From Comamonadaceae bacterium (GTDB lineage Bacteria; Pseudomonadota; Gammaproteobacteria; Burkholderiales; Burkholderiaceae_C): a stretch of 14,872 nucleotides of DNA. How positions within the stretch are numbered: the stretch's first letter is position 1; each line of letters starts with the position of its first letter. The stretch lies in the NCBI GenBank assembly GCA_007279715.1, contig QYPA01000124.1, positions 1 through 14,872 of the forward strand, read 5' to 3'. This document shows positions 8 to 14,454 of the stretch, in pieces. The notes under the pieces were generated by a model. It was not told the DNA's origin. It saw only the letters and a program-made list of their open reading frames with translations, and did no database searches. Made by a program: the position numbers and the translations under genes.

Positions 8-52
8 TGGTGGCCCGGGGCGGAATCGAACCACCGACACAAGGATTTTCAA
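8..52 (-). other. 3' 45 nt of a tRNA-Phe(GAA) gene (anticodon loop through CCA) lacking the 5' half; att-type repeat marking an integrative-island border
   Basis: Minus strand reads TTGAAAATCCTTGTGTCGGTGGTTCGATTCCGCCCCGGGCCACCA. This gives the GAA anticodon-loop context, T-arm GGTGG-TTCGATT-CCGCC, acceptor 3' strand CCGGGCC, discriminator A and CCA. The sequence 5' of it (53-100) has no D-arm and no complementary acceptor 5' strand (GGCCCGG). Confidence 0.8.
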
Positions 53-198
53 CTCTGATTGACCGCTTCGATTTTGTTCTAAATCAAGCGGCTTAAACGC
101 TGAAAACTTTTCGTGTGCGCCAAACCGTATTTTAACACGCGCTGAGCGCGTGCGCCAACAGTCCCTATATGTTACTCGACTCGCGCTCATCTGAGACC

Positions 199-639
199 CT
201 AGCGCTTGAAACCAGAGCGCAGCTTGTTGGCAGCAATCTCAATTTGCGCATCCAATTCACCCGATAAAACTGAAGACTGAATCAGCTCAAGCGTAGCTAC
301 AAGTTCTTTGTCGCTGACCAACTCCACTGCAAATTTTCCTTTTGCAAGTTCCAGCAGCCGTGCACCGTAACGCACGCTCAAAGACAGCTTGCGATTTTCT
401 GCTGTGAACCACCACTGCTTGACCCGTTTGCTGGTTTCCACAAGCTTTCGTAGCCCTGTTTCTTTGTCTGTGATGCTGCGCATTTTGACGGCGGAGAACT
501 GTGCTCCTGTTTGTTGCGCTTTGGCTAAATCAATTTGCTCTTGCAAACGTTTGCTCATCTTTTCCCTGCGTAGCTGTACGGGCGAGAAGTTGGTGGGTTT
601 TACAGCTGCGGTGAGCTTGAGGGTTGCGAAATTGGACAT
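199..639 (-). CDS. hypothetical protein, 146 aa, basic/helical; no assignable function
   Basis: ORF 199-645. The second ATG (637-639) lies about 8 nt after an AAAGGAAA Shine-Dalgarno-like run, whereas the first ATG is too close to it. No catalytic motifs recognised. It is divergent from the 1048 gene across a repeat-rich 400-bp region. Confidence 0.7.
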   Translation of the reverse strand: MSNFATLKLTAAVKPTNFSPVQLRREKMSKRLQEQIDLAKAQQTGAQFSAVKMRSITDKETGLRKLVETSKRVKQWWFTAENRKLSLSVRYGARLLELAKGKFAVELVSDKELVATLELIQSSVLSGELDAQIEIAANKLRSGFKR

Positions 640-738
640 GTGCATTTCCTTTCATTTGTTGTGAATGCACAGTGGATTGTGTGATCAAACGCCATTAAGG
701 ACGACCTCTTTCGCGCTGTCTTGTCAGGTCCATGCGAG

Positions 739-757
739 GTGTCGTTTTGCACGACAG
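739..757. repeat. palindrome family copy C: GTGTCGT-TTTGC-ACGACAG
   Basis: 7-5-7 inverted repeat read directly, in the divergent intergenic region between the 199-639(-) and 1048-1542(+) genes. Confidence 0.8.
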
Positions 758-830
758 TTCAATTTCGCCAAATTACCTACAAAAGACCACGATTAATTAG
801 GCATTTCTTTGTCGAGGGATAAATATTTGC

Positions 831-858
831 GAGTTGCGATGAGTTGCTAAAGAGTCGC
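831..858 (+). repeat. three direct repeats GAGTTGC / GAGTTGC / GAGTCGC spaced 10-11 bp
   Basis: gagttgcgat gagttgctaa agagtcgctg read directly. They carry the same GTTGC core as the adjacent heptad array. Confidence 0.7.
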
Positions 859-870
859 TGAATCAAAAAC

Positions 871-898
871 GTTACACGTTACTAGTTACAAGTTGCTG
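871..898 (+). promoter_or_regulatory. array of four contiguous 7-bp units GTTRC-NN (gttacac gttacta gttacaa gttgctg); candidate protein-binding heptad array
   Basis: Exact 7-bp periodicity read directly. It is the reverse complement of the motif in the 928-969 array. Confidence 0.65.
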
Positions 899-927
899 TA
901 TTTGGGACAAATGAGAAGCCCTGATTG

Positions 928-969
928 GCAACACGTGACTAGTAACTGGCAACCAGAAACGTGCAACGT
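928..969 (+). promoter_or_regulatory. array of six contiguous 7-bp units GNRAC-NN (gcaacac gtgacta gtaactg gcaacca gaaacgt gcaacgt), inverted relative to 871-898
   Basis: Exact 7-bp periodicity. GYAAC is the complement of GTTRC. Further GCAAC copies lie at 992-996, 1008-1012, 1017-1021 and 1028-1032, running up to the RBS of the 1048 gene. Confidence 0.65.
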
Positions 970-1047
970 CTTTTGATCTCTGTGACTTGGTGCAACCCCT
1001 GCACCCAGCAACCAGCGCAACTCCCACAGCAACTAAAGGAGATTGAC

Positions 1048-1542
1048 ATGCTGACCACCCCTGATACCCACACCACAGATACCACCCATACCACCCCCGC
1101 ACTGGCAGTGCGATTGTTTGATAACCAAAAGTACGGAACCACCTACGGCAAAGGCGTCTATCGACGGGCTTTGTACAACGGCACCGTGGACATCATGCAC
1201 CCCCAAGCCAAGTACTTGATTGATCTGTTCTCCTACCAAGACTGGATGAACCAAGCCCGCACAGACCAGCAAATGGCCGCCATTGACAGCGTACAAGAAG
1301 ACAAAGATGCACTGTTTAGCTGGATACAACGCTATGACCCCAAAAGCAAGAGCAAAACACTGGTGTCAGGCGTGTGCGTGTTCAGTCTTGCCAACATGAG
1401 CCTGCAGATGGTGATTCAAGACGATGCCAGTGACCTATGCAACCACTGGCAACTGGATGTTCGCCACTGCCGCCAAGCCGCCACAAACCAAAGCTCCCCG
1501 CAGTTGTTGGCCACCAATACAGACTTGGAGGTATTCAAATGA
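1048..1542 (+). CDS. hypothetical protein, 164 aa, with Thr/His/Pro-rich N-terminus
   Basis: ORF 961-1542. An internal ATG at 1048 is preceded by AAGGAG (1036-1041) at good spacing. The upstream 29 codons overlap the repeat arrays and are probably not translated. Confidence 0.65.
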   Translation: MLTTPDTHTTDTTHTTPALAVRLFDNQKYGTTYGKGVYRRALYNGTVDIMHPQAKYLIDLFSYQDWMNQARTDQQMAAIDSVQEDKDALFSWIQRYDPKSKSKTLVSGVCVFSLANMSLQMVIQDDASDLCNHWQLDVRHCRQAATNQSSPQLLATNTDLEVFK

Positions 1543-1584
1543 ACCCTGCCAAATCTATCAACTCGATCACCAAGGAGCACAACC

Positions 1585-2046
1585 ATGCGCATTGCTGAAA
1601 TTGCAGATCCACAGTCTGCGCTGGGTTTGTGGAAACTCATCAGCGACAACACATGGGCAGCACTTGAACAGCAGGCACAGCAGCAAGCCCAAGAGCAGCA
1701 GCAAAAAAGTGCTGCCAAAGCCAAACACGCCAAGTCCGGGGGTGGCAAACGAACCCCTGCCCGCATACCGCGCGGGCCTAGGCCGCCCGCGACTCCTGGG
1801 CCCAAAGCGCAAAGTGCGCAAAGCACAGATCAAAGTACAGCGCTGAGCAATCCCAGCATGCCCCAGCCTTCAACTGTCACGCACTCTGTCACGCCCACTG
1901 CCCTGCGAAAGGGCCCGTTTGGGGCAACGGGCACGACATTGCCCTCAACAACAGCAGCACTACCCAAACCCACAGCAGCGCAACCCGCTGGAGAATTGGA
2001 CCAACCCGCGCTCAAAGCCATTGCTGGGGGGATGACGCGGGCGTGA
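1585..2046 (+). CDS. hypothetical protein, 153 aa: ~30-aa structured N-terminus followed by a Gln/Lys/Pro/Thr/Ala-rich low-complexity tail
   Basis: ATG at 1585 is preceded by AAGGAG (1573-1578). The composition suggests a largely disordered protein. No family recognised. Confidence 0.6.
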   Translation: MRIAEIADPQSALGLWKLISDNTWAALEQQAQQQAQEQQQKSAAKAKHAKSGGGKRTPARIPRGPRPPATPGPKAQSAQSTDQSTALSNPSMPQPSTVTHSVTPTALRKGPFGATGTTLPSTTAALPKPTAAQPAGELDQPALKAIAGGMTRA

Positions 2047-2337
2047 TTGCTTGGGTAAGTAGAGCTAGCAGCACAGCGCAGAGTGCGTAAAACCACGTTT
2101 GCTGCGCTGATCTAGCCCTGTCAGCTGCCCAACTAGCTGAAATAGCACAGGGCGCTGCTGCGCTTGGTTTGGAGTTTGGGCTAAATAGCTTGACCAAAGA
2201 AAAGCACACTTTTATTAACCGCGTTGATTTCATTGAGGTTTTTAGTCCTGCCATTTCGGCGGGACTTTGGTTGTCCTTTTTTGCAAAAGAAAACACACTT
2301 GTTGATGCGTTTTTTATTTATAAAAAGGAACAAACCC

Positions 2338-2904
2338 ATGTCTCAAGCCAAAACACTGACCCCAGCGGAAATTGATCACCTGCTGACCTACATCGCACAA
2401 CGCAGCTTTGCCATGCGCAATCGCCTGATGTTTTTGACAGGCCTATGGTCTGGCGTTCGCGTGGGAGAAATTGCCAGCCTTAGCGTGGGCGATGTGAGAA
2501 ACGCCGATGGCAGCGTCAAAGCAGAGATACGCTTGACTGCGCAGCAGACCAAGGGACGCCAACCCCGCACGGTGTATTTGCCCCAGAAACTGCGCGATGC
2601 GCTGCAGGAGTATGTTGATCTGCGCAGCACCTGCCCTGCATCCCACCCCTTGTTCATTACAGCGGGGCGCAAGGCATTCACCGCCAATGTGATGTCACAG
2701 CACTTCTTTTGGTTGTTCAAGCGAGCGGGGATTGCAGGTGCCAGTAGCCATTCGATGCGGAGGACTTTTTTAACCTCGTTGGCATCCAAGGGAATCAGTA
2801 TTCGGGTGCTGGCAAGTTTGGCAGGGCACCGTTCGATTCAGGTGACTATGAAATATCTGGATGCATCCGATGACATGAAGCGGCGGGCGGTGGAACTTGT
2901 TTGA
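2338..2904 (+). CDS. small tyrosine recombinase, catalytic domain only (188 aa; FimB/FimE-sized)
   Basis: ATG 2338 follows AAGGAA (2325-2330). The catalytic signature is complete: R in GVRVGE, K in QQTKGRQPRTVYLP, H-x-x-R in HSMRRT, H in LAGHRS and Y in TMKYL. Only ~35 residues precede box I, so there is no SAM-like core-binding N-domain. Confidence 0.85.
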   Translation: MSQAKTLTPAEIDHLLTYIAQRSFAMRNRLMFLTGLWSGVRVGEIASLSVGDVRNADGSVKAEIRLTAQQTKGRQPRTVYLPQKLRDALQEYVDLRSTCPASHPLFITAGRKAFTANVMSQHFFWLFKRAGIAGASSHSMRRTFLTSLASKGISIRVLASLAGHRSIQVTMKYLDASDDMKRRAVELV

Positions 2905-2923
2905 CTGGTCGCGTGGTCATACG

Positions 2924-2942
2924 GTGTCGTGTTGAACGACGC
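2924..2942. repeat. palindrome family copy D: GTGTCGT-GTTGA-ACGACGC
   Basis: Read directly. It starts 20 nt after the recombinase stop codon, between convergent genes. Confidence 0.75.
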
Positions 2943-2964
2943 TTTACGCCGCAGTCGAGTCCTG

Positions 2965-3489
2965 TTATCGCTTGGTAGCAGTGAGAGTGACTTTGGTTTT
3001 TGGGTCAAGGTCTTGATCAAAAACCCAAGTTTTTCCATCGAAAGACTTGGTCACATAGGCTGTGGTCTCACCTTTCATAAATCGATCAGTAAATGATTTT
3101 TCCATACTTGCGATGTCATCTTTATCAGTCACAACTTGGTCATTCACGAGATATTTTTTAATATCAATTTTTCCGTCGATGGTCTTATCAAAAACCGTCT
3201 GGTCCTTCACACTCCAGTCACCAGTAGCCCTGGCGGCGCCCTCTACCTCTATTTTTAGTCCGCCATCTTTTCCCGTCATTGATATTGCCATATCGCATTC
3301 GTGAGTGAGGGACTTGTTGGGGAAGAACTCGCTCACACACTTGAGCACCATTTGACCGTTTATATTTTCGTCAGTCACTGGCTGGGTGATCTCATATGCC
3401 CACTTGCCCACTACATCTTTTTCCAGCGTTTTCCCACATCCTGTCAATACCAAAGCGCCTGCCAATACGATCCAAACGGCTCTTTTCAT
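2965..3489 (-). CDS. putative lipoprotein, 174 aa
   Basis: N-terminus MKRAVWIVLAGALVLTGCGK gives a signal peptide plus lipobox L-T-G-C. GGAG lies 8-9 nt upstream of the ATG. The gene is visibly more AT-rich than both flanks. Confidence 0.8.
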   Translation of the reverse strand: MKRAVWIVLAGALVLTGCGKTLEKDVVGKWAYEITQPVTDENINGQMVLKCVSEFFPNKSLTHECDMAISMTGKDGGLKIEVEGAARATGDWSVKDQTVFDKTIDGKIDIKKYLVNDQVVTDKDDIASMEKSFTDRFMKGETTAYVTKSFDGKTWVFDQDLDPKTKVTLTATKR

Positions 3490-3588
3490 TTCAACTGCTC
3501 CAACGATAGATGATGTAAAAATTTAGCGCCGCAATGTATCAGTAAAGAATGGCAGAGAAGACTTCGCATTTCCGCGTGACACAACGCT

Positions 3589-4590
3589 TCATGCCAATAG
3601 GTCAGTCTCGCCTGCTACAAACTTTGACCAAATTTCAATGAACCTGGGCTCTGTCATTGCCAACCCTGAAGGCAACCTATTCTTCATCTTGATACGGGTC
3701 TCCAGTTCGTGCTGGTAGTTTTCCCTGAGCCAGGCGCGCCAAGGTGAATCCGCATGTGTTTCAGCGCTGGTGGCTTCCAGATACGCCTTGTGATTCCGCT
3801 TGCCAAAAGGATATTGGATGGGCTCGATCTTGGTGGCATTGGGAAACGAGCCTTGCTCTGCATGCAGCACCATGCGCTGCGCTTTGTAGAGAAACCGCCC
3901 AATGGTGCTTTGCATGCGTTCCACAGGGCTTGTCTGCCTGCTAAAGCGCCAGCGCTCCACATCACGCACATTGAGCCCTGGCGCTGCCTTTAGCCTGTCG
4001 CCAATGCGCCATACCGCGATGTTGGGATACAGCAGTCGATACAGCAAGATCCAGTAGCCCCGTTCCAGCGCGGCGGGTGTCATGCGCTTGGTGTGCAGAC
4101 GCCACCGCGCTTGGCTGCTTGCCAGCACATCCAGCGCCCTGCCTTCATGGTGCTGGCGCAGGATCTCGCGAAACTGGCTCACGATGGTTTGCTGGGTGAT
4201 GGTCAAGGGCACTTCAATCACCACGCTCTTGCCAGCGGGGTAGAACACAAACTCGCCCAAGTTCTGCTCATCCACCAAGCGCACTTTGGCTGGACGCTGG
4301 GCTTCTTCCAGCAGCAAGTAGCCCGTGGTTCGCCACCATTGGCGGAAGTTGTCTTGCGTCAAGTCGCCTGCTTGCGTGAAAGTTATGGCGGTTTGGGGAT
4401 CCACAGGCTCCAGCCCGCTGTGTCTGGCATACCAAAACACGGGGCTCAGGCGCAGATAGTTCCACCACCAGAAGTAAGCCGTGCGCGATGCAGCCTCCAG
4501 CACAGCCTCTTCAGAGGCTCTGGTAAAGCCAGGAATCCCCTTGTAAAAGCCTGTTTGCGGACGCTTCATGCTGGGCACTATAACAATCAT
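3589..4590 (-). CDS. hypothetical Trp/Arg-rich protein, 333 aa (start possibly at Met8, 4569)
   Basis: Long ORF with the motif AYFWWWNYLRLSPVFWYA near the N-terminus. It is divergent from the 4699 gene. No enzymatic motif recognised. The antisense shadow ORFs are rejected. Confidence 0.75.
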   Translation of the reverse strand: MIVIVPSMKRPQTGFYKGIPGFTRASEEAVLEAASRTAYFWWWNYLRLSPVFWYARHSGLEPVDPQTAITFTQAGDLTQDNFRQWWRTTGYLLLEEAQRPAKVRLVDEQNLGEFVFYPAGKSVVIEVPLTITQQTIVSQFREILRQHHEGRALDVLASSQARWRLHTKRMTPAALERGYWILLYRLLYPNIAVWRIGDRLKAAPGLNVRDVERWRFSRQTSPVERMQSTIGRFLYKAQRMVLHAEQGSFPNATKIEPIQYPFGKRNHKAYLEATSAETHADSPWRAWLRENYQHELETRIKMKNRLPSGLAMTEPRFIEIWSKFVAGETDLLA

Positions 4591-4698
4591 TACGACTTCG
4601 GCGCAAATGGTGTTATGTGGATTTCAATACTCTTTATCAGCAATGCAACAGACAAATCGTCCTAGCCCCTTGCTGGTGGCTCAACGAAAGGAAATACC

Positions 4699-5559
4699 AT
4701 GAGCAATATCGCCACTCCCGTCGCCGCCCTGCAATCCACAGAGGCATCCACCAACCCCGCCGCACAAGGTGTCGTTTCACACGACACCCCAAACGGCGAA
4801 ACCCTGGTCCAGGGTCACAAGGCAATGCACGCCAGCATCGAACAACTGGTGTTGGAGCGTGAAGTTTGGCAAGAAAACGCCTTTCGCACCAGCAACGAGC
4901 AGTTGTATGGCTTGCTGCAACGCTGCTACGGGCTCTACAAAGCCATGTGCGAGGACTCCGCAGAGGCAAAGGCGCTGCGCGAAGGGCTGCGCACCTACAT
5001 CGGTCTCAAAGGGCATGTGTTCTCCCCCAGCACCCACACCTTGACTCGCATCGTCAAGTGCGTGTTTGGCAGCGACCGCCGTCGCGTGAGCGCCTACAGC
5101 ATCGTGCTGCGCTCTGCGCTGGCACAAAGCGTGGGCGTGATGGATGTGGCGCGGTTCATCCGCGACGCAGGTGGTGTGGAAGAAGTGCGCCTTGCCAAGG
5201 CTCCCAACGCCATGAGCGCCAAGCAGAAGGCGCTGGTGACCAGCAGTGTGCTGGCATACAAGAACATGGGCGTGTTCAGCAGCGCAGCACTCAGCGGCTC
5301 GTTCAACGATGTTGCCAAGGCTGGCACACAGACGGTGCTGATTGGCGTTTGGCAGGCTGATGGCTCTGTGGTGGTGCAGGCAGTGGTGGAAAGTGCCACT
5401 GCGCTGAACGCGGCTCTTGCCAGCCACCACGGCGAGGTGCGTGATGCTGCCAAGAAGCAGGCAGCGCAGGCACAGGAGAGCAGCAGAGCAGACAGCAAGG
5501 ACGCTGCTATCCAAGCCGCCGCTGCCACAGCGGTGATCGCTGAAGCAGTTCCAGCCTAA
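4699..5559 (+). CDS. hypothetical protein, 286 aa (disordered ends, helical Ala-rich core)
   Basis: ATG 4699 is preceded by AAAGGAAA. The 4777-5514(-) ORF and other overlapping ORFs are GC-driven shadows. Palindrome copy A lies in codons 24-30. Confidence 0.75.
   Translation: MSNIATPVAALQSTEASTNPAAQGVVSHDTPNGETLVQGHKAMHASIEQLVLEREVWQENAFRTSNEQLYGLLQRCYGLYKAMCEDSAEAKALREGLRTYIGLKGHVFSPSTHTLTRIVKCVFGSDRRRVSAYSIVLRSALAQSVGVMDVARFIRDAGGVEEVRLAKAPNAMSAKQKALVTSSVLAYKNMGVFSSAALSGSFNDVAKAGTQTVLIGVWQADGSVVVQAVVESATALNAALASHHGEVRDAAKKQAAQAQESSRADSKDAAIQAAAATAVIAEAVPA
4769..4788. repeat. palindrome family copy A: GTGTCGT-TTCAC-ACGACAC(C), 20/20 identical to 6291-6310
   Basis: Read directly. It lies inside the CDS and encodes (G)VVSHDT. 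Confidence 0.85.
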
Positions 5560-5565
5560 AGCCGC

Positions 5566-5598
5566 ACGGGGCAGTGTGATCGCTGCCCCGTTGTTTGA
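5566..5598 (+). terminator. hairpin ACGGGGCAG-N8-CTGCCCCGT followed by TGTTTGAT; possible attenuator or weak terminator between the 286-aa gene and the ATPase gene
   Basis: 9-bp GC-rich stem read directly, starting 7 nt after the stop at 5559. The T-tract is only moderate. Confidence 0.45.
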
Positions 5599-5623
5599 TC
5601 AACTTGATTTGAAGGAGAACTAT

Positions 5624-6313
5624 ATGTTCAGCGATTTTGAGGAGCGTTTTGGTCCCAAGTGCATAGATGACATCGTGTTTGCCACCCAGCAGCACAGGGA
5701 TCTCATTGAGGATCTGATCACGGGTCAGCGTCCATTTCCCATCACGGAAGGCAAATGCGGCATATTGCTGTATGGCATTCCAGGCACTGGTAAGAGTGCG
5801 TTGGCGAAACTACTGCCAGATGCCATGGAGGCAGCGCGAGGAGGCATGAGTTCTGGGGCAATGTATGTGCGGGTGCAGCCAGGCGCTAATGGCTTGAAGA
5901 TGGTCACTCATATAGCCAACGCAGCCATTCTGATGCCGCTGGGCAAGTATCGTTACTTCGTGCTGGACGAGGTGGATCAACTGACCAAGGAAGCCATGGC
6001 GATCCTGAAGTCCGTGATGAACCAACGCGGCACGGTGTGGGTGCTGACCACCAACGACTTCACTGCCATTGAATCTGGCGTGCGGGATCGCTGCCACTGC
6101 ATCCCATTCAACGCAGCACCCGCAGAGCGCTGGTTGCCACTGGCGCGGCGCATGCTTGCTCATGCGGGTGTGAGTGGCGTGAGTGATGCACAACTGGCAG
6201 CGGTGATCCAGCCATGTGCGGGCAGCGCAAGGCAGATCATGGACGCGGTTATCACATTGGCACTTCGGGTGCGGCGTGCCAGTCAAGGCAGTGTCGTTTC
6301 ACACGACACCTAA
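5624..6313 (+). CDS. AAA+ ATPase of the clamp-loader (RFC / DNA Pol III gamma-delta') type, short form (229 aa)
   Basis: ATG 5624 follows GAAGGAG. Motifs present: Walker A GIPGTGKS, Walker B FVLDEVD, sensor-1 LTTN, SRC-like box VRDRCHCIPF and sensor-2 GSARQIMDA. It is too short to carry a C-terminal collar domain. Confidence 0.85.
   Translation: MFSDFEERFGPKCIDDIVFATQQHRDLIEDLITGQRPFPITEGKCGILLYGIPGTGKSALAKLLPDAMEAARGGMSSGAMYVRVQPGANGLKMVTHIANAAILMPLGKYRYFVLDEVDQLTKEAMAILKSVMNQRGTVWVLTTNDFTAIESGVRDRCHCIPFNAAPAERWLPLARRMLAHAGVSGVSDAQLAAVIQPCAGSARQIMDAVITLALRVRRASQGSVVSHDT
6291..6310. repeat. palindrome family copy B: GTGTCGT-TTCAC-ACGACAC(C), 20/20 identical to 4769-4788
   Basis: Read directly. 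It forms the last seven codons (SVVSHDT) of the ATPase gene, immediately before the TAA. Confidence 0.85.
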
Positions 6314-6351
6314 ATCAGCGAACCATTTGATGATTTGAATGGTTCATTCCT

Positions 6352-6387
6352 AGCCCGCTGGGGTAGCGGGCTGTTTCTATTTTGTTT
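6352..6387 (+). terminator. rho-independent terminator after the ATPase gene
   Basis: AGCCCGCT-GGGGT-AGCGGGCT (perfect 8-bp stem) followed by GTTTCTATTTTGTTT. It is preceded by a second hairpin, GAACCATT...AATGGTTC (6320-6345). Confidence 0.8.
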
Positions 6388-6398
6388 ATCTGATCTGT

Positions 6399-6426
6399 AA
6401 ATTATAAATTATAAATTATAAATTAT
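6399..6426. repeat. tandem heptanucleotide repeat (AAATTAT)x4
   Basis: aaattataaattataaattataaattat read directly, at the GC-rich to AT-rich junction. Confidence 0.9.
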
Positions 6427-6464
6427 TTAATGAATGAATCAGGCTGCAATATTATTCGACTAAG

Positions 6465-6671
6465 TTATTTTCTATTAACGCGGACGAATATTTCCTTATC
6501 AATTTCAGAAAATATTTTCTGATAAATTTCCGGACGAGATGTCATGTCATTTTCAGTAACTTCTTGCGATGTCGCACCAAGAAAACCTGTCTTGTAAATA
6601 GTCTCAGTTTCTTTGAGGGCCTCTTTTTGGCTTTGTTGGTTCAAGTTGTTTTCCTTAATGATTTCAACGAC
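6465..6671 (-). pseudogene. possible gene remnant or small ORF (68 sense codons, no ATG/GTG start)
   Basis: Minus-strand frame is open from just after a TAA (6672-6674) to the stop at 6465-6467. It translates as VVEIIKENNLNQQSQKEALKETETIYKTGFLGATSQEVTENDMTSRPEIYQKIFSEIDKEIFVRVNRK. The only candidate start is a TTG at codon 10. No family recognised. Confidence 0.25.
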
Positions 6672-6691
6672 TTAGCGTATTAATACGAAAA

Positions 6692-6730
6692 AACCAAAGC
6701 TAATACATAAAAGCTTTGGTTCTTTATTTA
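6692..6730. terminator. bidirectional intrinsic-terminator-like hairpin
   Basis: AACCAAAGCT-N10-AGCTTTGGTT (perfect 10-bp stem), flanked by an A-run upstream (cgaaaaaa) and CTTTATTTAT downstream. Confidence 0.55.
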
Positions 6731-6857
6731 TGGAAAATATTGTGGGATTTAAGCGACTTTGCTTTTTTACGCTCCCCAAGCTCAACACGCTTTTTTAACT
6801 GTGCCAGCTACCCAATGCTTCGCTCAGTGCTTCTAAACGTTTGTAGCTTGTTTTAGC

Positions 6858-7217
6858 GTGTCAGACTACCGCGACAAGAGCAACCCGGACAGGCCACGGC
6901 ACAAGACGATGACGCTTGGCGCCGATGAGTTCATGCGCCGCTTTCTGCTGCACGTATTGCCCAGTGGCTTTCACCGCATCCGCCACTTTGGCCTGATTGC
7001 CAACAACGGGCGCAAGGAGAAACTGGCGCTGGCTCGTGAGCTCTTGAACCTGAAGCCTGAGCTCAGCTGCGAGGTCAAGGCAAGCGAGACCGCCGATGAG
7101 CTAGCAGGGGCGAACTTTGTGTGTGCGCACTGCGGTGCGCAGATGATGGTTCTTGAGTCGTTGCTGCGCTGTCATTCAATTCGGGGGCCACCTCAATTGC
7201 GAGGTGAACTGTGTTGA
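6858..7217 (+). pseudogene. IS91-family (rolling-circle, HUH-type) transposase, C-terminal ~119 aa only
   Basis: The peptide contains MTLGADEFMRRFLLHVLPSGFHRIRHFGLIANNGRK and a C-terminal CAHCG motif. Both are characteristic of the C-terminal third of IS91/IS801-type transposases (~400 aa full length). The frame is closed by a stop just upstream, at an abrupt AT-to-GC composition switch. Confidence 0.75.
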
Positions 7218-7561
7218 CAAGCGTGCCGCATTGGCTATGTAGAAGACTGACGATGTCACTTGATACGTCAGATGGGGTAGGCTTGCGTCAAACTGCTCGA
7301 GCGGACTTTTTCACACAAATAGGCGGGGCAAATAACGCTCGATTTATTCGCTTGCTGTGCACTTGGCCAGTGGTGTACGCAGTGATCGCGCATCCCGACA
7401 ACAAGTTGGCACTCAACGGCAACATCAAATCGCCATAGCTCTTCTCTGATCGGGGCACTCGCTTGCCCCGCGGTTTCCTCCCTCGGGGCTTGTACGACGC
7501 CCACCCTTACGAATTATCGGGATGCACGTGGCTTGCCTACGCGGGTGGACATCCTACAACC
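6858..7561 (+). mobile_element. 5'-truncated IS91-family element remnant, including the putative ori-type end downstream of tnpA
   Basis: The transposase fragment is followed by ~340 bp of GC-rich non-coding tail. The tail has hairpin CGGGGCA-N6-TGCCCCG (7451-7470) and ends ...GCCTACGCGGGTGGACATCCTACAACC (7535-7561). From memory this resembles the ...CCTAT(A/C)CC termini of IS91/ISCR oriIS ends. Composition drops to AT-rich shortly after. Confidence 0.55.
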
Positions 7562-7726
7562 CTAAACAATTGCAGTCGTTCAGGCAAACCTAGAAAGTCT
7601 TGACGATTTCTCAACAGCAGTCATCCAGGCGTTTGTCAACTGTCTTGATGGAATGCCATAGTCAACAGACGCCACTATCTGCTGTTAAGTGACGCCCGTC
7701 GCGAGTAACGACGTTGTAAAGAGCTA

Positions 7727-9016
7727 TCAGCTTGTTTGTTTGATAGCTCGTTTAGCCCCTTCGATCAGTTTCTTCGCAGCCTCATCAATGGTGATCTTGC
7801 CAAAAGCCAGTTGGTCCGCAATGGGTCTTACTACTCCATTTTCAACCTCGATCGCACCCGCAGGTGAAGCGGGTGGATATGGCATCGTTACTTTTTCAAT
7901 TGATGAAATGAACTCTGCAGACATTTTTTCAATGTCGTTCAAGCTTGTCATGACTTCACTGCGCACTTTCAGGTTGGGAGGTATACCTCGTTCAACTTCA
8001 AGTGCTTTTCCTGCATTGATGTCATTGACAAATAAGTCAATGAACTTAACGGCTGCATCGATATTTTTTGCGTCTCGGCTGATACTCCAAACAAGACTTG
8101 GACGGTAAAAAGTGCCTGAAGGACCACCTTTTTTTGTAATCGGAAAAGTAGCAATACCCAGTTTGGCTTCTGGTAGCAACGTACTGAATGCGTTGAGATT
8201 ATTCGAATACAGCAAGGCGGCTGAGCAACTTCTTTGTGCCATTTCACTGCCGTCAGGAGTCATCAGACCTTTCGTTGAAACGTCTGCTGGTGTGCAACCA
8301 CCGGCTTTGCGAAGGTTTTCCCAATAGGTGTAGAACTCTCTGGCATCATCATAATCAAAACCCAATTTTTGATCTGCAGTGAAATAAAGTTTGCCACGCT
8401 GCATCATCCAAGCCTGCAACACATTTGTTTGGCGTGCACAGTATGGTGATGCCCAGTAGCGTCCACCGCCATTGGCTTTAGTGATCTCAATGGCCTGTTT
8501 TGCATACTCTTCCCAAGTTAATCCAAAAGTAGGCTCTGGAATCCCTGCCTTGGCATAAGCACGTTTGTCATAAATCATGGCAAAGGAATTGAGCGATTGG
8601 GCAATACCCATCATTTTGTTATCCACACGGCCGAGCTCAAGAATTCCTTTGCCCAAGTCCTTGGTCCGGATTGAACCTTTGGAGATGAAATCATCCAGAG
8701 AAATTAAAGCTGAACGGCGCGAGTAATCTGGTAGCGTATTGGGTTCCAGCTGAACAATGTCAGGCATGTTTCCACCTGCCATCATGGTATTTAATTTGGC
8801 CCAGTAGTCACTGGAAGTCTCCGCATTTGCGGTCAGTCCAGGATATGACTTGGCAAAAATCTCTGTAACGGCATTGGTGCGTTTGACACGATCGGGGGAG
8901 CCCCAATACATGATGCGCACATTTACATCAGCCGCTCGCGCAGATGGTGAAACTATGCTCGTGGCCATACTGGCCATGGCCAAACCGCTTTTCAATACTT
9001 GACGTCTGCTTTGCAT
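7727..9016 (-). CDS. ABC transporter extracellular solute-binding protein (carbohydrate type, family 1) with twin-arginine signal
   Basis: 429 aa. N-terminus MQSRRQVLKSGLAMASMATSIVSPSARA gives an S-R-R-x-x-L-K Tat motif plus an A-x-A cleavage site. AGGAG RBS. Last gene of the operon. Confidence 0.9.
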   Translation of the reverse strand: MQSRRQVLKSGLAMASMATSIVSPSARAADVNVRIMYWGSPDRVKRTNAVTEIFAKSYPGLTANAETSSDYWAKLNTMMAGGNMPDIVQLEPNTLPDYSRRSALISLDDFISKGSIRTKDLGKGILELGRVDNKMMGIAQSLNSFAMIYDKRAYAKAGIPEPTFGLTWEEYAKQAIEITKANGGGRYWASPYCARQTNVLQAWMMQRGKLYFTADQKLGFDYDDAREFYTYWENLRKAGGCTPADVSTKGLMTPDGSEMAQRSCSAALLYSNNLNAFSTLLPEAKLGIATFPITKKGGPSGTFYRPSLVWSISRDAKNIDAAVKFIDLFVNDINAGKALEVERGIPPNLKVRSEVMTSLNDIEKMSAEFISSIEKVTMPYPPASPAGAIEVENGVVRPIADQLAFGKITIDEAAKKLIEGAKRAIKQTS

Positions 9017-9095
9017 CGTAATCTCCTGGTTAGAGTGGTGGTAAGGGGAAAGTAGGGAATGAAAATGAATATGAAGGTTCGTTTAGTGGGCTGAT

Positions 9096-10193
9096 TCATA
9101 CGGCTTCAGGTCTTATCTGTTGAATAGTCAGACCGTTGGCATCGAACACATGCAAATGTGAGCGGTCGATAGCGAAAGGAATCTTTTGACCCGCCTGAAT
9201 CGGATGCTGCCCTGGCAGAGACATCGTGAGCGATTGACCATCTGATAACGAACCGTAAAGATAGACTTGGCCACCAAGTTGTTCGGTGTGTGTGACGGCC
9301 AATTCGCCCAGCAACCACGAACCTTCTGTCCAAAGTACAAGATGCTCAGGACGAAGCCCGAGAGTCAACTCCTGCTCATGAATAGTCAGTGCAAAAGGCA
9401 AATCAAAATCAGTACCAGAAAGTGAAAACCAAGCGCGTTCTTGCTCGTGCTTAAGAAATTTAATTTGAACCAAATTCATCTTGGGACTGCCGATAAAACC
9501 TGCAACAAATTTATTCACCGGATGGTTGTAGATCTCCAATGGACTACCTATCTGTTCCACATTTCCGGATCGCAAGACCACAATCTTTTCAGCCAAGGTC
9601 ATAGCCTCCACTTGGTCATGCGTCACATAGATCATGGTCGTACCAAGTTCTTTGTGTAAGGCAGCGATTTCAACCCGCATCTGAACTCGAAGTTCTGCGT
9701 CAAGGTTGGAGAGTGGTTCATCAAACAAGAACACCTTAGGGTCCCGAACGATAGCGCGCCCAATCGCAACACGCTGACGTTGACCTCCCGAAAGTTGTTT
9801 GGGCTTACGTGCTAACAGAGGTCCGATTTGAAGAATATGGGCAACCTTTGTAACCTTTGTTTCAATTTCACTTTTTGCCTCGCCCAGAGTTTGAAGCCCA
9901 AATGCAAGATTTTGGTAAACCGTCATATGGGGATATAAGGCATACGATTGGAAAACCATAGCAATTCCACGCATTGCGGGTGGTGTTTGATTGACGACCT
10001 CGCCATTCATGAGAATTCGGCCCTCACTGACCGTCTCCAGGCCCGCGATCATGCGCAGAAGGGTCGATTTTCCGCACCCAGAAGGACCAACAAAGACGAC
10101 GAATTCTCCGGCTTTGATTTCAAGACTCACATTGCGGATAATCTCATTGCTTTCAAATCGCTTGGTGACTTTATCTAGGAAAAGATCTGTCAT
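9096..10193 (-). CDS. ABC transporter ATP-binding protein, MalK/UgpC/MsmK type (365 aa)
   Basis: Walker A GPSGCGKST, Q-loop, signature LSGGQRQR, Walker B VFLFDEPLS and H-loop VTHD. A C-terminal regulatory (TOBE-like) extension is present. AAGGA RBS. Confidence 0.95.
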   Translation of the reverse strand: MTDLFLDKVTKRFESNEIIRNVSLEIKAGEFVVFVGPSGCGKSTLLRMIAGLETVSEGRILMNGEVVNQTPPAMRGIAMVFQSYALYPHMTVYQNLAFGLQTLGEAKSEIETKVTKVAHILQIGPLLARKPKQLSGGQRQRVAIGRAIVRDPKVFLFDEPLSNLDAELRVQMRVEIAALHKELGTTMIYVTHDQVEAMTLAEKIVVLRSGNVEQIGSPLEIYNHPVNKFVAGFIGSPKMNLVQIKFLKHEQERAWFSLSGTDFDLPFALTIHEQELTLGLRPEHLVLWTEGSWLLGELAVTHTEQLGGQVYLYGSLSDGQSLTMSLPGQHPIQAGQKIPFAIDRSHLHVFDANGLTIQQIRPEAV

Positions 10194-10213
10194 TGTTGTG
10201 TCCTTATCTGAAT

Positions 10214-11101
10214 TTATCGTTTCATGCCGGTAGTTGCTACGCCTTCAATCAACATTCGTTGAAAGAAAAGAAACACGATAAAAACGGGCAGCAATGCCAA
10301 TGTGGACATGGCAAACAAACCTACCCAATCGGAAATCGAAGTTGCGTCAATAAAGGAGCGCAAGCCGAGTTGAACTGTGTAAGACTTCATCTCATTCAAA
10401 TAAATCAGTGGCCCAAAAAAGTCCCCCCAACTCCAAATAAAAGAAAAGATGGCAGTGGTTGCAAGTACTGGCATTGAAAGGGGTAGCAATATTTTTAAAT
10501 AGATGCGCCACGGGCCGCATCCATCCATTTGAGCAGCTTCGTCTAACTCTTTAGGTATGCCCCTGAAAAATTGGACCATTAGAAAAATGAAGAAGGCATC
10601 AATAGCAAAAAATTTAGGGACAACAAGTGGCAGATAAGTATCCAGCCACCCAATTTTCAAGAACATGACGTACTGGGGGATCATCACGGCATGCTGAGGC
10701 ATCATGAGTGTGCCAAGCATGATTGCAAACCAAAAGTTTCGACCCTTGAAGTTCAATCGAGCAAAAGCAAAAGCAGTTACCGAGCACGACATGACATTGC
10801 CAATCACGGTTAACACCGATATGAGCAAAGAGTTCCAGGCAAAGGTTCCAAATGAATAAGTCAGCGCAGACCAGGCTTCTTTGTAATTTTTTAAGTTTAG
10901 AACACTGGGTATAAGAGAAAAATTATTCAAAATTTCCCCATTGGTTCTGAATGAACTTGCCACCATCCAAAGCAGGGGATAGAGCATGAATACTGAAAAT
11001 ACAAGTAAAAGAATATGCAGAGACAATGAGACAAGAAATCCGCTAGATTGGCCATTATTCTTGATAGGGCGCATCAAAAAATTGAGCTTTCTACTCGTCA
11101 T
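10214..11101 (-). CDS. carbohydrate ABC transporter permease (MalG-like), 295 aa
   Basis: Multi-TM protein with EAA loop EAAQMDGCGPWRIYLKILLP. Its start overlaps the upstream permease stop by 11 nt (translational coupling). Confidence 0.9.
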   Translation of the reverse strand: MTSRKLNFLMRPIKNNGQSSGFLVSLSLHILLLVFSVFMLYPLLWMVASSFRTNGEILNNFSLIPSVLNLKNYKEAWSALTYSFGTFAWNSLLISVLTVIGNVMSCSVTAFAFARLNFKGRNFWFAIMLGTLMMPQHAVMIPQYVMFLKIGWLDTYLPLVVPKFFAIDAFFIFLMVQFFRGIPKELDEAAQMDGCGPWRIYLKILLPLSMPVLATTAIFSFIWSWGDFFGPLIYLNEMKSYTVQLGLRSFIDATSISDWVGLFAMSTLALLPVFIVFLFFQRMLIEGVATTGMKR

Positions 11102-12014
11102 AGTGCACCCACAATTTGGATGTTAAAAATGCGATAGCTGTGAAGCTGGCAATGATCACAATGAGAATCCAAGCCAATGCAGAAGCGTTACCCATGCGCA
11201 AATATGCAAATGCTTCTTGATAAAGGTAAAGGGTATAAAACAGAGTGCTGTTGACTGGTTCACCTGTACCCCCACTGATAATGAAGGCCGGCGTAAACGC
11301 TTTGAACGCCTCGATGGTTTGCATCACAGCATTGAAAAAAATGACTGGCGTCAGCAAAGGCAATGTGATTTTAAAAAACTGCCGGACAGGCCCTGCGCCA
11401 TCAATGCTTGCGGCCTCATACATGTCTCGTGGAATTTGTCTTAATCCGGCCAAAAAAATGATCATTGGTGAGCCAAATTGCCATATGCTCAAAATGATCA
11501 AGGTGTCTAATGCATGATCCGGCGTAGTGATCCATCCAGGTCCTTCATAGCCCATCAGTCGCATTAAGTAAGTGGCAAGCCCATCAGTTGAAAAGAATTG
11601 GCGCCAAAGAATTGAAATTGCCACGCTGCCACCCAGAAGGGATGGAAGATAGAAGATGGCTCTGTAAATGGAAAGACCACTAAGCCCTTTATTAAGAATC
11701 ATCGCCACGGCCAATGCCGCCACTAATTTCAGCGGAACAGACAGAACCACATAGACAAAAGTAACATGCAAAGCATCCCGAAATTTTGAATCTTCTGTGA
11801 GGATGCGGGCGTAATTCTCAAGCCCCACCCAAACTGGCGGCCTGGCTAAGTCGTATTCAGTGAAGGAAAGATAAAGTGAAGCAATCGTCGGACCAAATGT
11901 AAAAAGGAAAAATCCTGTCAGCCAGATCATTAAAAATTTATAGCCACTCAATTCATGGACCCATCGATCTGTCCATCGATCTTTTCGGGGAATGTCGGTG
12001 CTTGAGGATTTCAT
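11091..12014 (-). CDS. carbohydrate ABC transporter permease (MalF/UgpA-like), 307 aa
   Basis: Multi-TM protein with EAA loop EAASIDGAGPVRQFFKITLPLL. Confidence 0.9.
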   Translation of the reverse strand: MKSSSTDIPRKDRWTDRWVHELSGYKFLMIWLTGFFLFTFGPTIASLYLSFTEYDLARPPVWVGLENYARILTEDSKFRDALHVTFVYVVLSVPLKLVAALAVAMILNKGLSGLSIYRAIFYLPSLLGGSVAISILWRQFFSTDGLATYLMRLMGYEGPGWITTPDHALDTLIILSIWQFGSPMIIFLAGLRQIPRDMYEAASIDGAGPVRQFFKITLPLLTPVIFFNAVMQTIEAFKAFTPAFIISGGTGEPVNSTLFYTLYLYQEAFAYLRMGNASALAWILIVIIASFTAIAFLTSKLWVHYDE

Positions 12015-12035
12015 GGAGATGCAAGCGAATGCTTC

Positions 12036-13856
12036 TTAAACTTTGCCTATAGATTTATTGACCGGTGTTGTGCAATTTTTTGCCCAATCGGCATAAATCT
12101 CGGAAACTTTTTGAAATGAAATTTTCTTATGCTGTCTGTCGCTTGCAATTAGCCCTTTCAGATTGATACCCCGTTGAAAACTGTTTTGTCGGCGTTCAGT
12201 TCTAAAGTCATAGAGGACCCATGGTGAAATTCCGCGGATGTAACTTGCCTTTTTCAACATCTTTAATTGTGTTTCTAAAATCAAAGATTGGTTCTCCTCT
12301 GAATAACGATCAGAGTGTTCGCCATGCAGACCGGGTAATGCATCTGCACCTGTTTCAGTAATGACGATGGGTTTGGTGGGATTTGAGTTATTCAGCAACT
12401 GAGACAATCCCTCAAAAGAAGGCTCATACCAACCGAAATATTCGTTGATGCCAATGACATCCAGTACTTCACTGAGTCGATCTTGGATTTGAAATGTTTC
12501 CCTGTTAATTAGGCATGCAGCAGAGATCAATCGCGTGTCATCTGCTTTGCGCGCAGCAGCAGCTAACCGTGACATGAAACTCAGTCTCGCGTCAGTGTCA
12601 TGATTTTCATTTCCTACGCCCCAAAAAATGATACTGGAACGGTTTCGGTCACGTCTTATCAACTCTTGCAGTTGATTGTTCGCATCATTGAATGTGTCTG
12701 GGTTACCGAAATCTATTGCCCAATACACAGGGATTTCTGCCCATAATAAGATCCCTAATTCATCTGCAATGCTTGCAACAAGTTCATGGTGAGGGTAGTG
12801 GGATAGTCGAATGAAATTTGCATTCAGTTCTTTGGTATGTCGAAGCATGTCACGTACTGTTTGTTCATTGGATACTTTTCCGATCGGCAGGTTTTCCTCG
12901 TGGACGCTGATGCCACGTAAAAACAAGTCTTCCCCATTCAATAACAGTCGGTCACCATGGCACCTTATTTGACGAAAGCCCACCTGGTCGAGTATCGCGT
13001 CTGTCCCGTAACTAACCTTGATTTCGTAAAGTTTCGGATTGTCCGGGCTCCATGCTTGGAAATCTAAATTGATTTTTTTGACACCCTTCCCCGCGACCAA
13101 CACCATCTCAAATACTTGATCAAGTTCGGGCAATTCAATCTGCGCGACGCCATCAATCGGTTCGGAAAGACAAACTTCGAATTGAATCTCCTTGCGCGCA
13201 GGCTCATTAATCCAGGCAGCGTGGAAGTCTTGAATAAAAACGGCAGGCAGAACGACAAGGCAAACCTCTCGATACAGCCCGCCGTAGTTAAACCAGTCAG
13301 TGTGATTCATGGGCACGCGGTCTGCGCGACAACGGTTTTCAACCTGGATCTGCAGAAGATTGTTCAAAGGTTCCAAGTTCGCGCTGAGTTCGATGAAAAA
13401 TGGCGTGGAGCCACCTTGATGGCTACCCATAAATCGACCGTTCAAGAACACCCGTGCTTCATAGTTGGCTGCACCCACACGCAAGAAAATGCGATCTTTT
13501 TTGGAAGACGGTGGTGAGTCAAATGTTCGGGAATACCATGCACTGCCTTCAAAGTGAAACCACTCGGGACGCACAGTATTCCAGCACGATGGAACTTTGG
13601 TCGTTTGCCAATGGGCATCATCGTAGTCTAGGGGCGGGGAATCCTTTGAGTGGGACTTGTTTTGAATCTCATACCACCGCTGCCTGAGTCCTTCGTCATG
13701 CGGGTCAATCACAAAATTCCAAACGCCATCCAAGCTTACTGTTGCCCGGCCTGCCATGGTGATGAGATTGGCCGCTTGGACTCTGCCAGCAGCAAATGGC
13801 TTCGCATAGTCTTCATCATGCAGATGAGCATAAGGGTCCTTGACGAGCGATTCCAT
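12036..13856 (-). CDS. glycoside hydrolase family 2 enzyme, beta-glucuronidase/beta-galactosidase-like (606 aa)
   Basis: Collinear with the GusA-type layout: LDGVWNF..., HQGGSTPF, NFIRLSHYPH, acid/base region FWGVGNE and nucleophile region VITETGADA. Its length matches ~600-aa GH2 glucuronidases. GAGG RBS. Confidence 0.9.
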   Translation of the reverse strand: MESLVKDPYAHLHDEDYAKPFAAGRVQAANLITMAGRATVSLDGVWNFVIDPHDEGLRQRWYEIQNKSHSKDSPPLDYDDAHWQTTKVPSCWNTVRPEWFHFEGSAWYSRTFDSPPSSKKDRIFLRVGAANYEARVFLNGRFMGSHQGGSTPFFIELSANLEPLNNLLQIQVENRCRADRVPMNHTDWFNYGGLYREVCLVVLPAVFIQDFHAAWINEPARKEIQFEVCLSEPIDGVAQIELPELDQVFEMVLVAGKGVKKINLDFQAWSPDNPKLYEIKVSYGTDAILDQVGFRQIRCHGDRLLLNGEDLFLRGISVHEENLPIGKVSNEQTVRDMLRHTKELNANFIRLSHYPHHELVASIADELGILLWAEIPVYWAIDFGNPDTFNDANNQLQELIRRDRNRSSIIFWGVGNENHDTDARLSFMSRLAAAARKADDTRLISAACLINRETFQIQDRLSEVLDVIGINEYFGWYEPSFEGLSQLLNNSNPTKPIVITETGADALPGLHGEHSDRYSEENQSLILETQLKMLKKASYIRGISPWVLYDFRTERRQNSFQRGINLKGLIASDRQHKKISFQKVSEIYADWAKNCTTPVNKSIGKV

Positions 13857-13875
13857 CTATACAACCTCTGATCTT

Positions 13876-13889
13876 GGTAAACGTTTACC
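13876..13889. promoter_or_regulatory. perfect 14-bp palindrome GGTAAACGTTTACC: LacI/GalR-family operator (or cre-like site) 20 nt upstream of the GH2 start
   Basis: It matches the TGNAANCGNTTNCA-type operator pattern of LacI-family regulators and lies between the putative promoter and the RBS of the operon. Confidence 0.7.
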
Positions 13890-13923
13890 TAAATAATGAT
13901 GTATGTAATCGCATTATTATCCT

Positions 13924-14364
13924 TTAAAAAGACGACATCCTAGTCGCAAAAGATTCAACAAGATCGCCTTTGAATTTAATAACAAGAGTTAGAGTCTTTT
14001 GGCTACTCACTACCCTATTGCCAGATTCGCTTTTACTAGCATCACTTTTTCCACCAATACCGAAAATACCTAAAATACCTATTACACCACCAACGCTCGT
14101 CGAAGCAGAGGCTTCCTCTGCTTTAGTTTCAGTTGTTGAGGAAACCTTGTCATAAATCCAAGTTTCAGCATTTTCGCTGCTGGAAGTTACCATATTCGGA
14201 GATCCAAGTTTTTCGACGATTTGGTCTTTTGTCGCACCTTTAACCACGCTCTGTTGAATCTGCCCGAGTGTCATGTTTCCACTTGATTGACCCAGAGCAT
14301 AAAGGGGGGCGAATAATAATAAGATAAAAATTTTATTTAATATTTTCATACAATTAAATTCCAT
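13924..14364 (-). CDS. small secreted protein with BamE/SmpA-OmlA-like N-domain and a glycine-zipper segment (146 aa; start possibly Met6 at 14349)
   Basis: Signal peptide MKILNKIFILLLFAPLYALGQ. The motif GMTLGQIQQSVVKGATKDQIVEKLGSPN....ETWIYD resembles BamE-type folds. GGVIGILGIFGIGG is a glycine-zipper-like stretch. Confidence 0.7.
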   Translation of the reverse strand: MEFNCMKILNKIFILLLFAPLYALGQSSGNMTLGQIQQSVVKGATKDQIVEKLGSPNMVTSSSENAETWIYDKVSSTTETKAEEASASTSVGGVIGILGIFGIGGKSDASKSESGNRVVSSQKTLTLVIKFKGDLVESFATRMSSF

Positions 14365-14435
14365 TTTAGAGTTAAGGTTAATCGTGAGTTACAACAGATG
14401 TGGAAATTGAAGGCAAAAAACCTCACAAACCTAGT

Positions 14436-14454
14436 GTGTCGGGTAACACGACAA
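14436..14454. repeat. palindrome family copy E: GTGTCGG-GTAAC-ACGACAA
   Basis: Same 7-5-7 geometry, read directly, in the spacer between the BamE-like gene and the integrase 3' end. Confidence 0.6.

Follow-up and report, generated by a model that had tools for sequence, protein, structure and literature searches.

A 19-bp palindrome occurs five times in the window analysed here, which is the entire 14,872-bp contig QYPA01000124.1 of a Comamonadaceae metagenome-assembled genome (MAG). The contig carries most of a genetic island that ends in a tRNA-Phe fragment. From sequence comparison, the palindrome can be read with moderate confidence as the place of crossover for a recombination system that the island itself carries and by which backbone modules and cargo cassettes are traded. 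Observed directly were the motif and its confinement to the island, the constancy of its positions, half-sites that vary independently, site-gene-site arrays in the cargo, and homology breakpoints at the edges of the site. More tentatively, the site, a recombinase that consists of a catalytic domain only and a pair formed by a 286-aa protein and an AAA+ ATPase may together make up an undescribed cassette capture-and-shuffling system of Limnohabitans, Rhodoferax and their relatives.

Five copies of a palindromic site

The pattern GTGTCGKNNNNNACGAC matches the window at 739, 2924, 4769, 6291 and 14436, with the two perfect palindromes matching on the minus strand too. These are the coordinates given in the original prediction, and the pattern search finds all five. 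Chance expectation is 0.00 matches and 0/200 dinucleotide shuffles gave any, on which grounds chance occurrence was rejected. The contexts that had been described for the sites are also correct, these being a divergent region, the sequence after the recombinase gene, the 5' end of a coding sequence, the last codons of the AAA+ gene and the spacer at the integrase 3' end (Table 1). A scan with up to 3 mismatches to GTGTCGT-N5-ACGACAC returns the same five sites and no further copy in the window; therefore the sugar operon has no site even at this tolerance, as had been claimed.

The centre of site 1 is 103 nt upstream of the DUF6641 start (645, minus strand) and site 2 begins 19 nt past the recombinase stop codon (2902-2904). 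Sites 3 and 4 share one 20-mer, which is read in one frame in both genes, and 118 nt separate site 5 from the integrase stop. A weak trace of a possible decayed sixth site abuts the stop of the 333-aa gene. In the homologous place a related locus, L001 (loci are cited by number), has an intact second site, and the window retains only ...CACAACGC/TTCATGCC.

The canonical site is a perfect 19-mer, GTGTCGTGT-T-ACACGACAC, which is a 9-1-9 continuous palindrome. The consensus, rGTGTCGT-K-T-W-A-M-ACGACACy, comprises two inverted TGTCGTKT half-sites around a central A or T, these two bases having roughly equal frequency at the centre. A logo of 60 sites has information over 19-21 bp and none outside. 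The 7-5-7 architecture described in the original prediction, read as a 7-bp stem with a free 5-nt loop, gives way to the continuous palindrome of 19-21 bp in the logo.

Positions 8 and 12 vary independently (G..C 72, G..A 64, T..C 72, T..A 56; Fisher p = 0.62), and T9 and A11 are kept in 207/264 sites although they are unable to pair around a one-base centre. Taken together, these two properties point away from a stem-loop and towards a symmetric protein that reads two independent half-sites in the DNA duplex. The same centre variant is shared by 26% of site pairs within one island, against 12% expected. Arm spacing differs between lineages, being 7, 8 or 9 nt: the variant in L009 is TTGTCG-N8-CGACAA (+1 spacing), those in L013 are GGTCGTGT-TC-ACACGACC and AGTCGTGT-TTG-ACACGACT, and that in L017 is an even 18-bp palindrome.

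A second palindrome, here called type 2, has the sequence AGTGTCGG-GTTGAA-CCGACAGG with 8-nt spacing and is found about 105-130 bp from the type-1 sites in 12 contigs, in places on both sides of one type-1 site. The loci include L077, L092, L097, L105, L121, L136, L153 and L183. This arrangement suggests a composite site or a small repeated element.

Rfam has no match for the sites, and no T-run follows them. Separate canonical intrinsic terminators are present at 5566-5591 and 6351-6373, after the 286-aa and AAA+ genes. An identity as intrinsic terminators was rejected, there being no T-tract at the sites and true terminators close by. The site is not known to match the boxes of LexA, Fur or other regulators. 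A likeness to the terminal repeats of Tn402/Tn5053 (TGTCGTTTT...) was judged coincidental because there is no DDE transposase or TniB hit.

Restriction to the island

The exact sequence TGTCGT-N5-ACGACA is present 51 times in 285 kb of related loci and 0 times in 664 kb of unrelated loci. For eight genomic loci, the 35.1 kb outside the tRNA or integrase boundary contain 0 sites and the 108.7 kb on the island side contain 39. As far as these flanks and unrelated loci show, the site is confined to the island, and a generic repeat of similar density throughout the genome, which the original prediction had weighed against its own proposal, is not what was found.

None of 2.9 million viral contigs contains the motif, and a tblastn search with DUF6641 gave no match in phages. 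Both results led to the rejection of a phage origin. No plasmid relatives of the 286-aa protein were found. DUF6641 and the recombinase both match plasmid pAB510d of Azospirillum sp. B510, which has no site family. The region concerned (L184; pAB510d, 420-440 kb) is a distant relative of the island, with an integrase, DUF6641, later a small recombinase of 44% identity and then a convergent gene of unknown function, all annotated as hypothetical. It contains no 286-aa/AAA+ pair and no repeated palindrome. In the literature searched, no description was found of the full site sequences, of DUF6641 or of such islands, and this island family and its site appear there as undescribed.

Fixed positions in related islands

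Alignment of AAA+ homologues identified 18 true relatives in GTDB genomes, from Limnohabitans, Rhodoferax, Comamonadaceae and Oxalobacteraceae MAGs and one Aestuariivirga. Scanning metagenome contigs for the motif alone retrieved at least 120 from freshwater, and 76 of the 120 listed contain a backbone gene. The comparison set is thus 138 loci, 18 genomic and 120 from metagenomes. Searches with the backbone proteins found between about 520 and 920 homologues per protein. Common to the 18 relatives is the backbone order DUF6641 (-), recombinase (+), 333-aa gene (-), 286-aa gene (+) and AAA+ gene (+), cargo, and integrase, with further sequence between DUF6641 and the recombinase and on either side of the cargo. 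The islands adjoin different tRNA genes and have two architectures.

The site recurs at the same places in these islands. It is in the 5' end of the 286-aa gene in 34/43 loci (median +79 from the ATG), after the recombinase stop in 30/47 (median +20), upstream of DUF6641 in 22/41 (median -106), where it is sometimes doubled, 45 bp apart, and overlapping the AAA+ stop in 18/32. Beside the integrase 3' end it is present in 26/48 loci (median +23), across different integrase types. The position of site 1 is the only one of these that is promoter-like. The positions are kept, those in three coding genes included, across islands with proteins that are only ~50% identical. The conservation in related islands on which the original prediction was staked therefore extends to both sequence and position.

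A leader of ~100 nt is conserved between site 1 and the DUF6641 start (window 646-738) in about 30 loci. It contains CCAATGACCCGCC..., GGTTGCTC and CTGTGCTTTATCAACA and then GAAAGGAAAAGCAC-ATG, and its conservation ends at the site. This leader is probably the promoter and 5' untranslated region of DUF6641.

The constraint on the DNA of the site is visible in the encoded proteins. The AAA+ homologues terminate in ...SVV or ...SVVSHDT, even at ~70% identity with differing preceding residues. In the 286-aa protein, VVxN/HDT is the sole conserved patch of a variable N-terminus, and a site read as SVVEHDT is found within some DUF6641 genes. The coding-region sites are always in one frame, GTC GTN NNN NAC GAC ACN, encoding V-V-x-x-D-T, in three proteins and at four positions. 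Most encode x-N/H-D-T, and the copies near residue 228 of the 286-aa protein (L003, L014 and L015) encode x-S-D-T; the DUF6641 genes considered for in-frame sites are those of L006, L008, L010 and L012.

Locus L012 (Limnohabitans lacus) has, at 9380-9908, recombinase residues 1-97 running straight on into residues 204-280 of the 286-aa protein, from its C-terminal part, and the 333-aa gene is deleted. It is therefore a decayed island.

Cargo arrays and homology breakpoints

The cargo regions are site-gene-site arrays with one to three genes between sites (L183, L092, L129). In L183, five single genes are separated by sites, four of these identical. The cargo functions in the arrays are mutually unrelated and the genes are in both orientations. 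The cargo between sites 4 and 5 varies from island to island, and its GC content is 43-47%, compared with 52-58% for the backbone.

Comparison of locus pairs at least 88% identical gave 241 distinct internal homology breakpoints. Of these, 10% are within 12 bp of a site centre, as against 1.2% for random positions. With an intergenic-only null, 17/149 breakpoints are near a site, where 3.0% would be expected (maximum 7.4%), and 16 of the 17 are exactly at the site edge, where 1.5 would be expected (maximum 5). For query loci from complete genomes, isolates or probable long-read assemblies, 6/65 breakpoints are near a site versus 0.7%.

Individual cases are exact to the base. In L119 and L144, 99% identity to L170 over 2.5 kb starts at the first base of a site, and in the pairs L002 and L174, and L090 and L175, homology stops at the last base. 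The DUF6641 gene of L176 is truncated at its own internal site. Between L001 and L018, homology ends 4 nt past site 2, where a lipoprotein gene has been inserted; the window shares this insert. Fragments of the 3' ends of integrase, AAA+ and recombinase genes, each then followed by a site, are frequent, with cases in L154, L018, L129, L124, L150 and L111. Contig ends often fall at sites. For the right end of the window itself, an integrase-internal site was considered and rejected, as in L130 the sequence runs on without a site.

The small recombinase and a possible mechanism

The 188-aa protein encoded before site 2 retains the catalytic residues R41, K72, H138, R141, H164 and Y173, five of which are invariant in 16 homologues and H164 at least 90% conserved. 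Its closest solved relatives by PDB profile are XerA (1.8e-21) and XerD (3.7e-14), and the catalytic domain alone aligns. The protein has no N-terminal domain and is below the cut-off of every curated family. In NCBIfam it scores 81 bits with the XerA model (cut-off 220), 68 with XerC (cut-off 335), 43.8 with the integron-integrase model TIGR02249 (cut-off 265) and 42.6 with invertase models (cut-off 221; E = 5e-11); PRK15417 gives 25.6 (cut-off 435). The two short arms around a centre suit a dimer of catalytic domains.

On the proposed mechanism, the palindrome would be a duplex-DNA recognition site of tRNA-integrated islands in freshwater Burkholderiales. It would punctuate the island at the edges of DUF6641, of the segment ending in the recombinase, of the 333-aa gene, of the 286-aa gene with its AAA+ partner, of the cargo and of the integrase, and also between single cargo genes, and islands would exchange, gain, lose and truncate modules there. 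The Xer-like recombinase may dimerise on the DNA, with a monomer on each half-site and cleavage around the centre, and the 286-aa protein, which is helix-turn-helix-like, may with its AAA+ partner recognise the site or assemble the complex.

Among the three candidate roles put forward in the original prediction, recombination or resolution is the best supported. The breakpoints and truncations at site edges, the arrays and the presence of a site after the recombinase gene in 30/47 loci all speak for it. The acting protein, and an exchange that is enzymatic rather than driven by microhomology, are what we infer.

Several observations weigh against such an exchange. About 90% of the examined breakpoints are more than 12 bp from any site. 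The large mosaic block in common with L018 begins 62 nt ahead of site 3, at the ATG of the 286-aa gene, and with this block a rule that sites bound every mosaic block is only partly true. In L001 the duplication flanking the lipoprotein insert reaches ~50 nt past the site, into a recombinase 3' remnant. Clean indels, in which one locus has A-S-B and another A-S-X-S-B, were looked for, and few were found, most being one-ended. The half-sites reach the centre, with no evident free spacer of 6-8 bp, and sites within essential backbone genes would risk self-deletion. An identical 19-bp palindrome could also support joins by microhomology or replication slippage or, rarely, assembly chimeras, with no dedicated enzyme.

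The tie of the sites to the 188-aa recombinase in particular, drawn from sequence comparison, may hold and is weakened by two phyletic exceptions. L017 retains five sites and has no small recombinase, while the Azospirillum relative has a recombinase of 44% identity, DUF6641 and an integrase and lacks both the 286-aa/AAA+ pair and the site family. In addition, the recombinase of L009 is 81% identical to that of the window, yet its sites have the +1 spacing.

The other backbone proteins

The 286-aa protein has no match in Pfam, PDB or BFVD. In its AlphaFold2 (AF2) model, residues 31-160 have a predicted local distance difference test score (pLDDT) of about 90, and the most conserved segment, HTLTKIVKCVFGxDRRRVSAYSIVLR, is modelled as a helix-turn-helix within this confident region. 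The AF2 model of DUF6641 (mean pLDDT 64) has no significant fold match. The stand-alone AAA+ protein of 229 aa has its best hits to RFC and DnaX/HolB and contains the motifs DRCHC and GSARQI; it is always paired with the 286-aa protein, and roughly 920 homologues, mostly metagenomic, were found. A resemblance of the 333-aa protein to DUF6499/RovC-type regulators was unsupported by Pfam or PDB profile. None of the backbone proteins yielded a ParB, KorB or other known DNA-binding domain or fold with Pfam, NCBIfam or, for the 286-aa protein and DUF6641, the AF2 models.

Alternative explanations

The main rival reading, possible if on balance unlikely, is that the sites are operators or anchors for a DNA-binding protein of the island, the best candidate being the 286-aa protein with its AAA+ partner, in regulation, silencing or a partition-like complex. 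In that case the junctions would be a side effect of having short palindromes in repeated copies. The palindrome is symmetric, informative at every one of its 19 bp and made of independent half-sites, as is typical of a dimeric duplex binder; base-exact breakpoints and truncations, however, are unexpected for a pure operator. The fixed and at times doubled site at -106 from DUF6641 favours regulation, and the site in the 5' end of the 286-aa gene suggests autoregulation, whereas most of the fixed positions are gene 3' ends or are between convergent genes and not at promoters, and there are sites between unrelated cargo genes too. The sites follow the 286-aa and AAA+ genes phyletically, as L017 has both and Azospirillum neither, and the sharing of a centre variant by the sites of one island fits as well. 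The putative recognition helix in the conserved 286-aa segment is altered only in L013, which is also the only locus with altered half-sites. The phyletic evidence nevertheless has n = 2 and the covariation n = 1, and no known DNA-binding domain or fold was detected in the backbone proteins. KorB binds dispersed OB sites on IncP plasmids. The island sites resemble the KorB-OB and ParB-parS systems in being perfect palindromes with about 5-12 dispersed copies per element, some far from promoters. They differ in that the island has no protein with a ParB or KorB domain, the sequence is unrelated and the sites coincide with recombination junctions.

An improbable explanation is that the sites act as single-stranded hairpins, either as oriT/nic-type sites for the recombinase as a MOB_M-type relaxase or as RNA hairpins for processing or stability. 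In the relaxase version, initiation and termination at different copies would yield site-bounded segments. The MOB_M relaxases (TcpM, MobK with catalytic Y179, and MpsA with MpsB) are related to tyrosine recombinases and are common in chromosomal islands beside integrases, and their oriTs contain inverted repeats; in SGI1 the catalytic and core-binding functions are divided between two proteins (PMC6414798, PMC8152469, bioRxiv 10.64898/2026.01.13.699239). The island likewise has a small tyrosine-recombinase-like protein beside an integrase. Its similarity to TcpM, the MOB_M member compared, is weak (hhalign probability 39%, E = 3e-4, 92 columns) and no MobM family is among its NCBIfam hits, in contrast to the XerA and XerD matches at 1e-21 and 1e-14. 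Five to ten symmetric copies per island, in both orientations, are also unlike the one composite oriT, and there is no conserved asymmetric flank as a possible nic site. Lineage-variable arm spacing would be tolerable for a stem-loop, and the sites have predicted folding energies of -8 to -18 kcal/mol, but the conservation of the unpairable T9 and A11 and the lack of a pairing preference at positions 8 and 12 go against a hairpin. With ordinary intrinsic terminators after the same genes and no Rfam match, the RNA hairpin or attenuator role of the original prediction is disfavoured.

That the palindrome is a selfish repeat, like repetitive extragenic palindromic (REP) sequences or miniature inverted-repeat transposable elements, or a mere preferred insertion target, spread without serving the islands, is very improbable: the short palindromic form, the intergenic place of many copies, the type-2 companions in 12 contigs and the contig ends frequently at sites would fit, but the sites are island-confined and also inside coding sequences, whereas REP sequences and bacterial interspersed mosaic elements have hundreds of extragenic copies genome-wide, their positions are kept at ~50% protein identity, no sequence is conserved outside the 21 bp, and no transposase partner is associated with them, the window proteins having no domain of a REP-associated tyrosine transposase (RAYT; HUH Y1).

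Comparison with known systems

If the palindrome is a crossover site, its nearest counterparts are other modular exchange systems. In the plasmid dif (pdif) modules of Acinetobacter, as outlined in PMC6449649 and PMC13141974, XerC/XerD sites flank accessory modules. The island shares with them many dispersed copies of a short site at the borders of backbone and accessory modules, which comprise one or a few genes and occur in differing contexts, as well as a recombinase that is Xer-like by sequence. The island site is, however, a symmetric palindrome of 19-21 bp rather than a 28-bp 11-6-11 XerC/XerD site, the host is a tRNA-integrated island and not a plasmid, and some of the sites are within coding sequences. 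XerC, XerD and XerA have two domains and ~300 aa, unlike the 188-aa, catalytic-domain-only enzyme of the island with its scores below the Xer cut-offs.

Integrons and their attC sites, including clusters of attC sites lacking integron-integrases (CALIN), also have single-gene arrays, palindromic separators, a nearby tyrosine recombinase gene and variable cargo. The island lacks an IntI-type integrase, as the TIGR02249 score indicates, and its genes are in both orientations, with sites also cutting through the backbone. An attC site is an imperfect palindrome of 57-141 bp with R''/L''...L'/R' boxes (RYYYAAC...GTTRRRY), is recognised as a folded single strand and is conserved as a folded structure, whereas the island site is 19-21 bp, has no such boxes and is conserved as duplex sequence.

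The R64 shufflon (Rci, 19-bp sfx) similarly has multiple 19-bp sites at gene ends that give alternative termini, comparable to the SVV and SVVSHDT ends of the AAA+ protein, and FimB and FimE are, at about 200 aa, of catalytic-domain size like the island recombinase. However, there are no inversion variants among the 138 loci, and backbone gene order and orientation are constant in all of them. The island sites are also symmetric, in direct and inverted pairs and distributed across the whole island.

On the crossover reading, the sites would work like dif modules and integron cassettes but fall outside both families. By analogy, and again tentatively, a capture-and-shuffling system of this kind would parallel integrons and dif modules in function, but its symmetric site would be minimal, at 19 bp, and would also form part of the coding ends of the backbone genes.

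Features of the window

ARAGORN found no complete tRNA in the window. The tRNA-Phe fragment at its left end, which L012 also has next to DUF6641, probably represents the island's distal att repeat. In L018 and L004, the complete tRNA-Phe has an orientation at odds with a simple model running from tRNA through integrase to repeat. An open reading frame (ORF) of 153 aa at 1585-2046 (+) encodes a low-complexity sequence with abundant Q, A and P, and its conservation in L001 and L018 is limited to the first ~50 residues. Just past the AAA+ terminator, at the transition from backbone to cargo, is an AT-rich tandem repeat (AAATTAT, ~4 copies, about 6398-6427). The cargo region opens with a C-terminal fragment of an IS91-family (Y2_Tnp) transposase at 6858-7217 (+).

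Table 1. Sites, genes and other features of the 14,872-bp window
Feature	Coordinates	Strand	Remarks
tRNA-Phe(GAA), 3' 59 nt; island boundary repeat	8-65	-	5' part absent; 90% identity to full tRNA-Phe of L004, L018
DUF6641 backbone protein gene	199-645	-	Pfam PF20346
Two small genes of unknown function	between 645 and 2338		
Site 1, GTGTCGTTTTGCACGACAG	739-757		Distal edge of conserved DUF6641 upstream region; divergent region
188-aa tyrosine recombinase	2338-2904	+	Catalytic domain only; candidate enzyme; Pfam Phage_integrase E = 1.5e-27
Site 2, GTGTCGTGTTGAACGACGC	2924-2942		Between recombinase stop and stop of inserted lipoprotein gene
Lipoprotein gene, insert at site 2	2965-3489	-	In window and L001; absent from L018, L002, L005, L015
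Possible decayed sixth site (weak)	3569-3588		Abuts 333-aa gene stop
333-aa backbone protein	3589-4590	-	Function unknown; highly variable
286-aa protein	4699-5559	+	Unknown fold; candidate site-binding factor
Site 3, GTGTCGTTTCACACGACAC	4769-4787		Codons 25-30 (VVSHDT) of 286-aa ORF
229-aa AAA+ ATPase	5624-6313	+	Clamp-loader-like; invariably downstream of 286-aa gene
Site 4, identical to site 3	6291-6309		Final six codons and stop (VVSHDT, stop) of AAA+ ORF
Cargo between sites 4 and 5	6314-14435		IS91 transposase fragment, sugar ABC transporter and GH2 operon, lipoprotein
Site 5, GTGTCGGGTAACACGACAA	14436-14454		Cargo/integrase boundary
Island integrase, 3' end	14573-14872	-	Cut by contig end

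Implications

Even if the sites were operators, the palindrome defines a large unannotated island family. If they are true recombination sites, they would be a third, independent solution to modular gene exchange beside integrons and Xer/dif modules, operating in some of the most abundant freshwater bacteria. This would explain how the islands assemble diverse single-gene cargo, including signalling proteins, hydrolases and sugar-uptake operons. So small a recombinase (188 aa), acting on a target of 19 bp, would also be of interest as a tool. Finally, it would provide the first functional handle on the DUF6641, 286-aa and 333-aa protein families.

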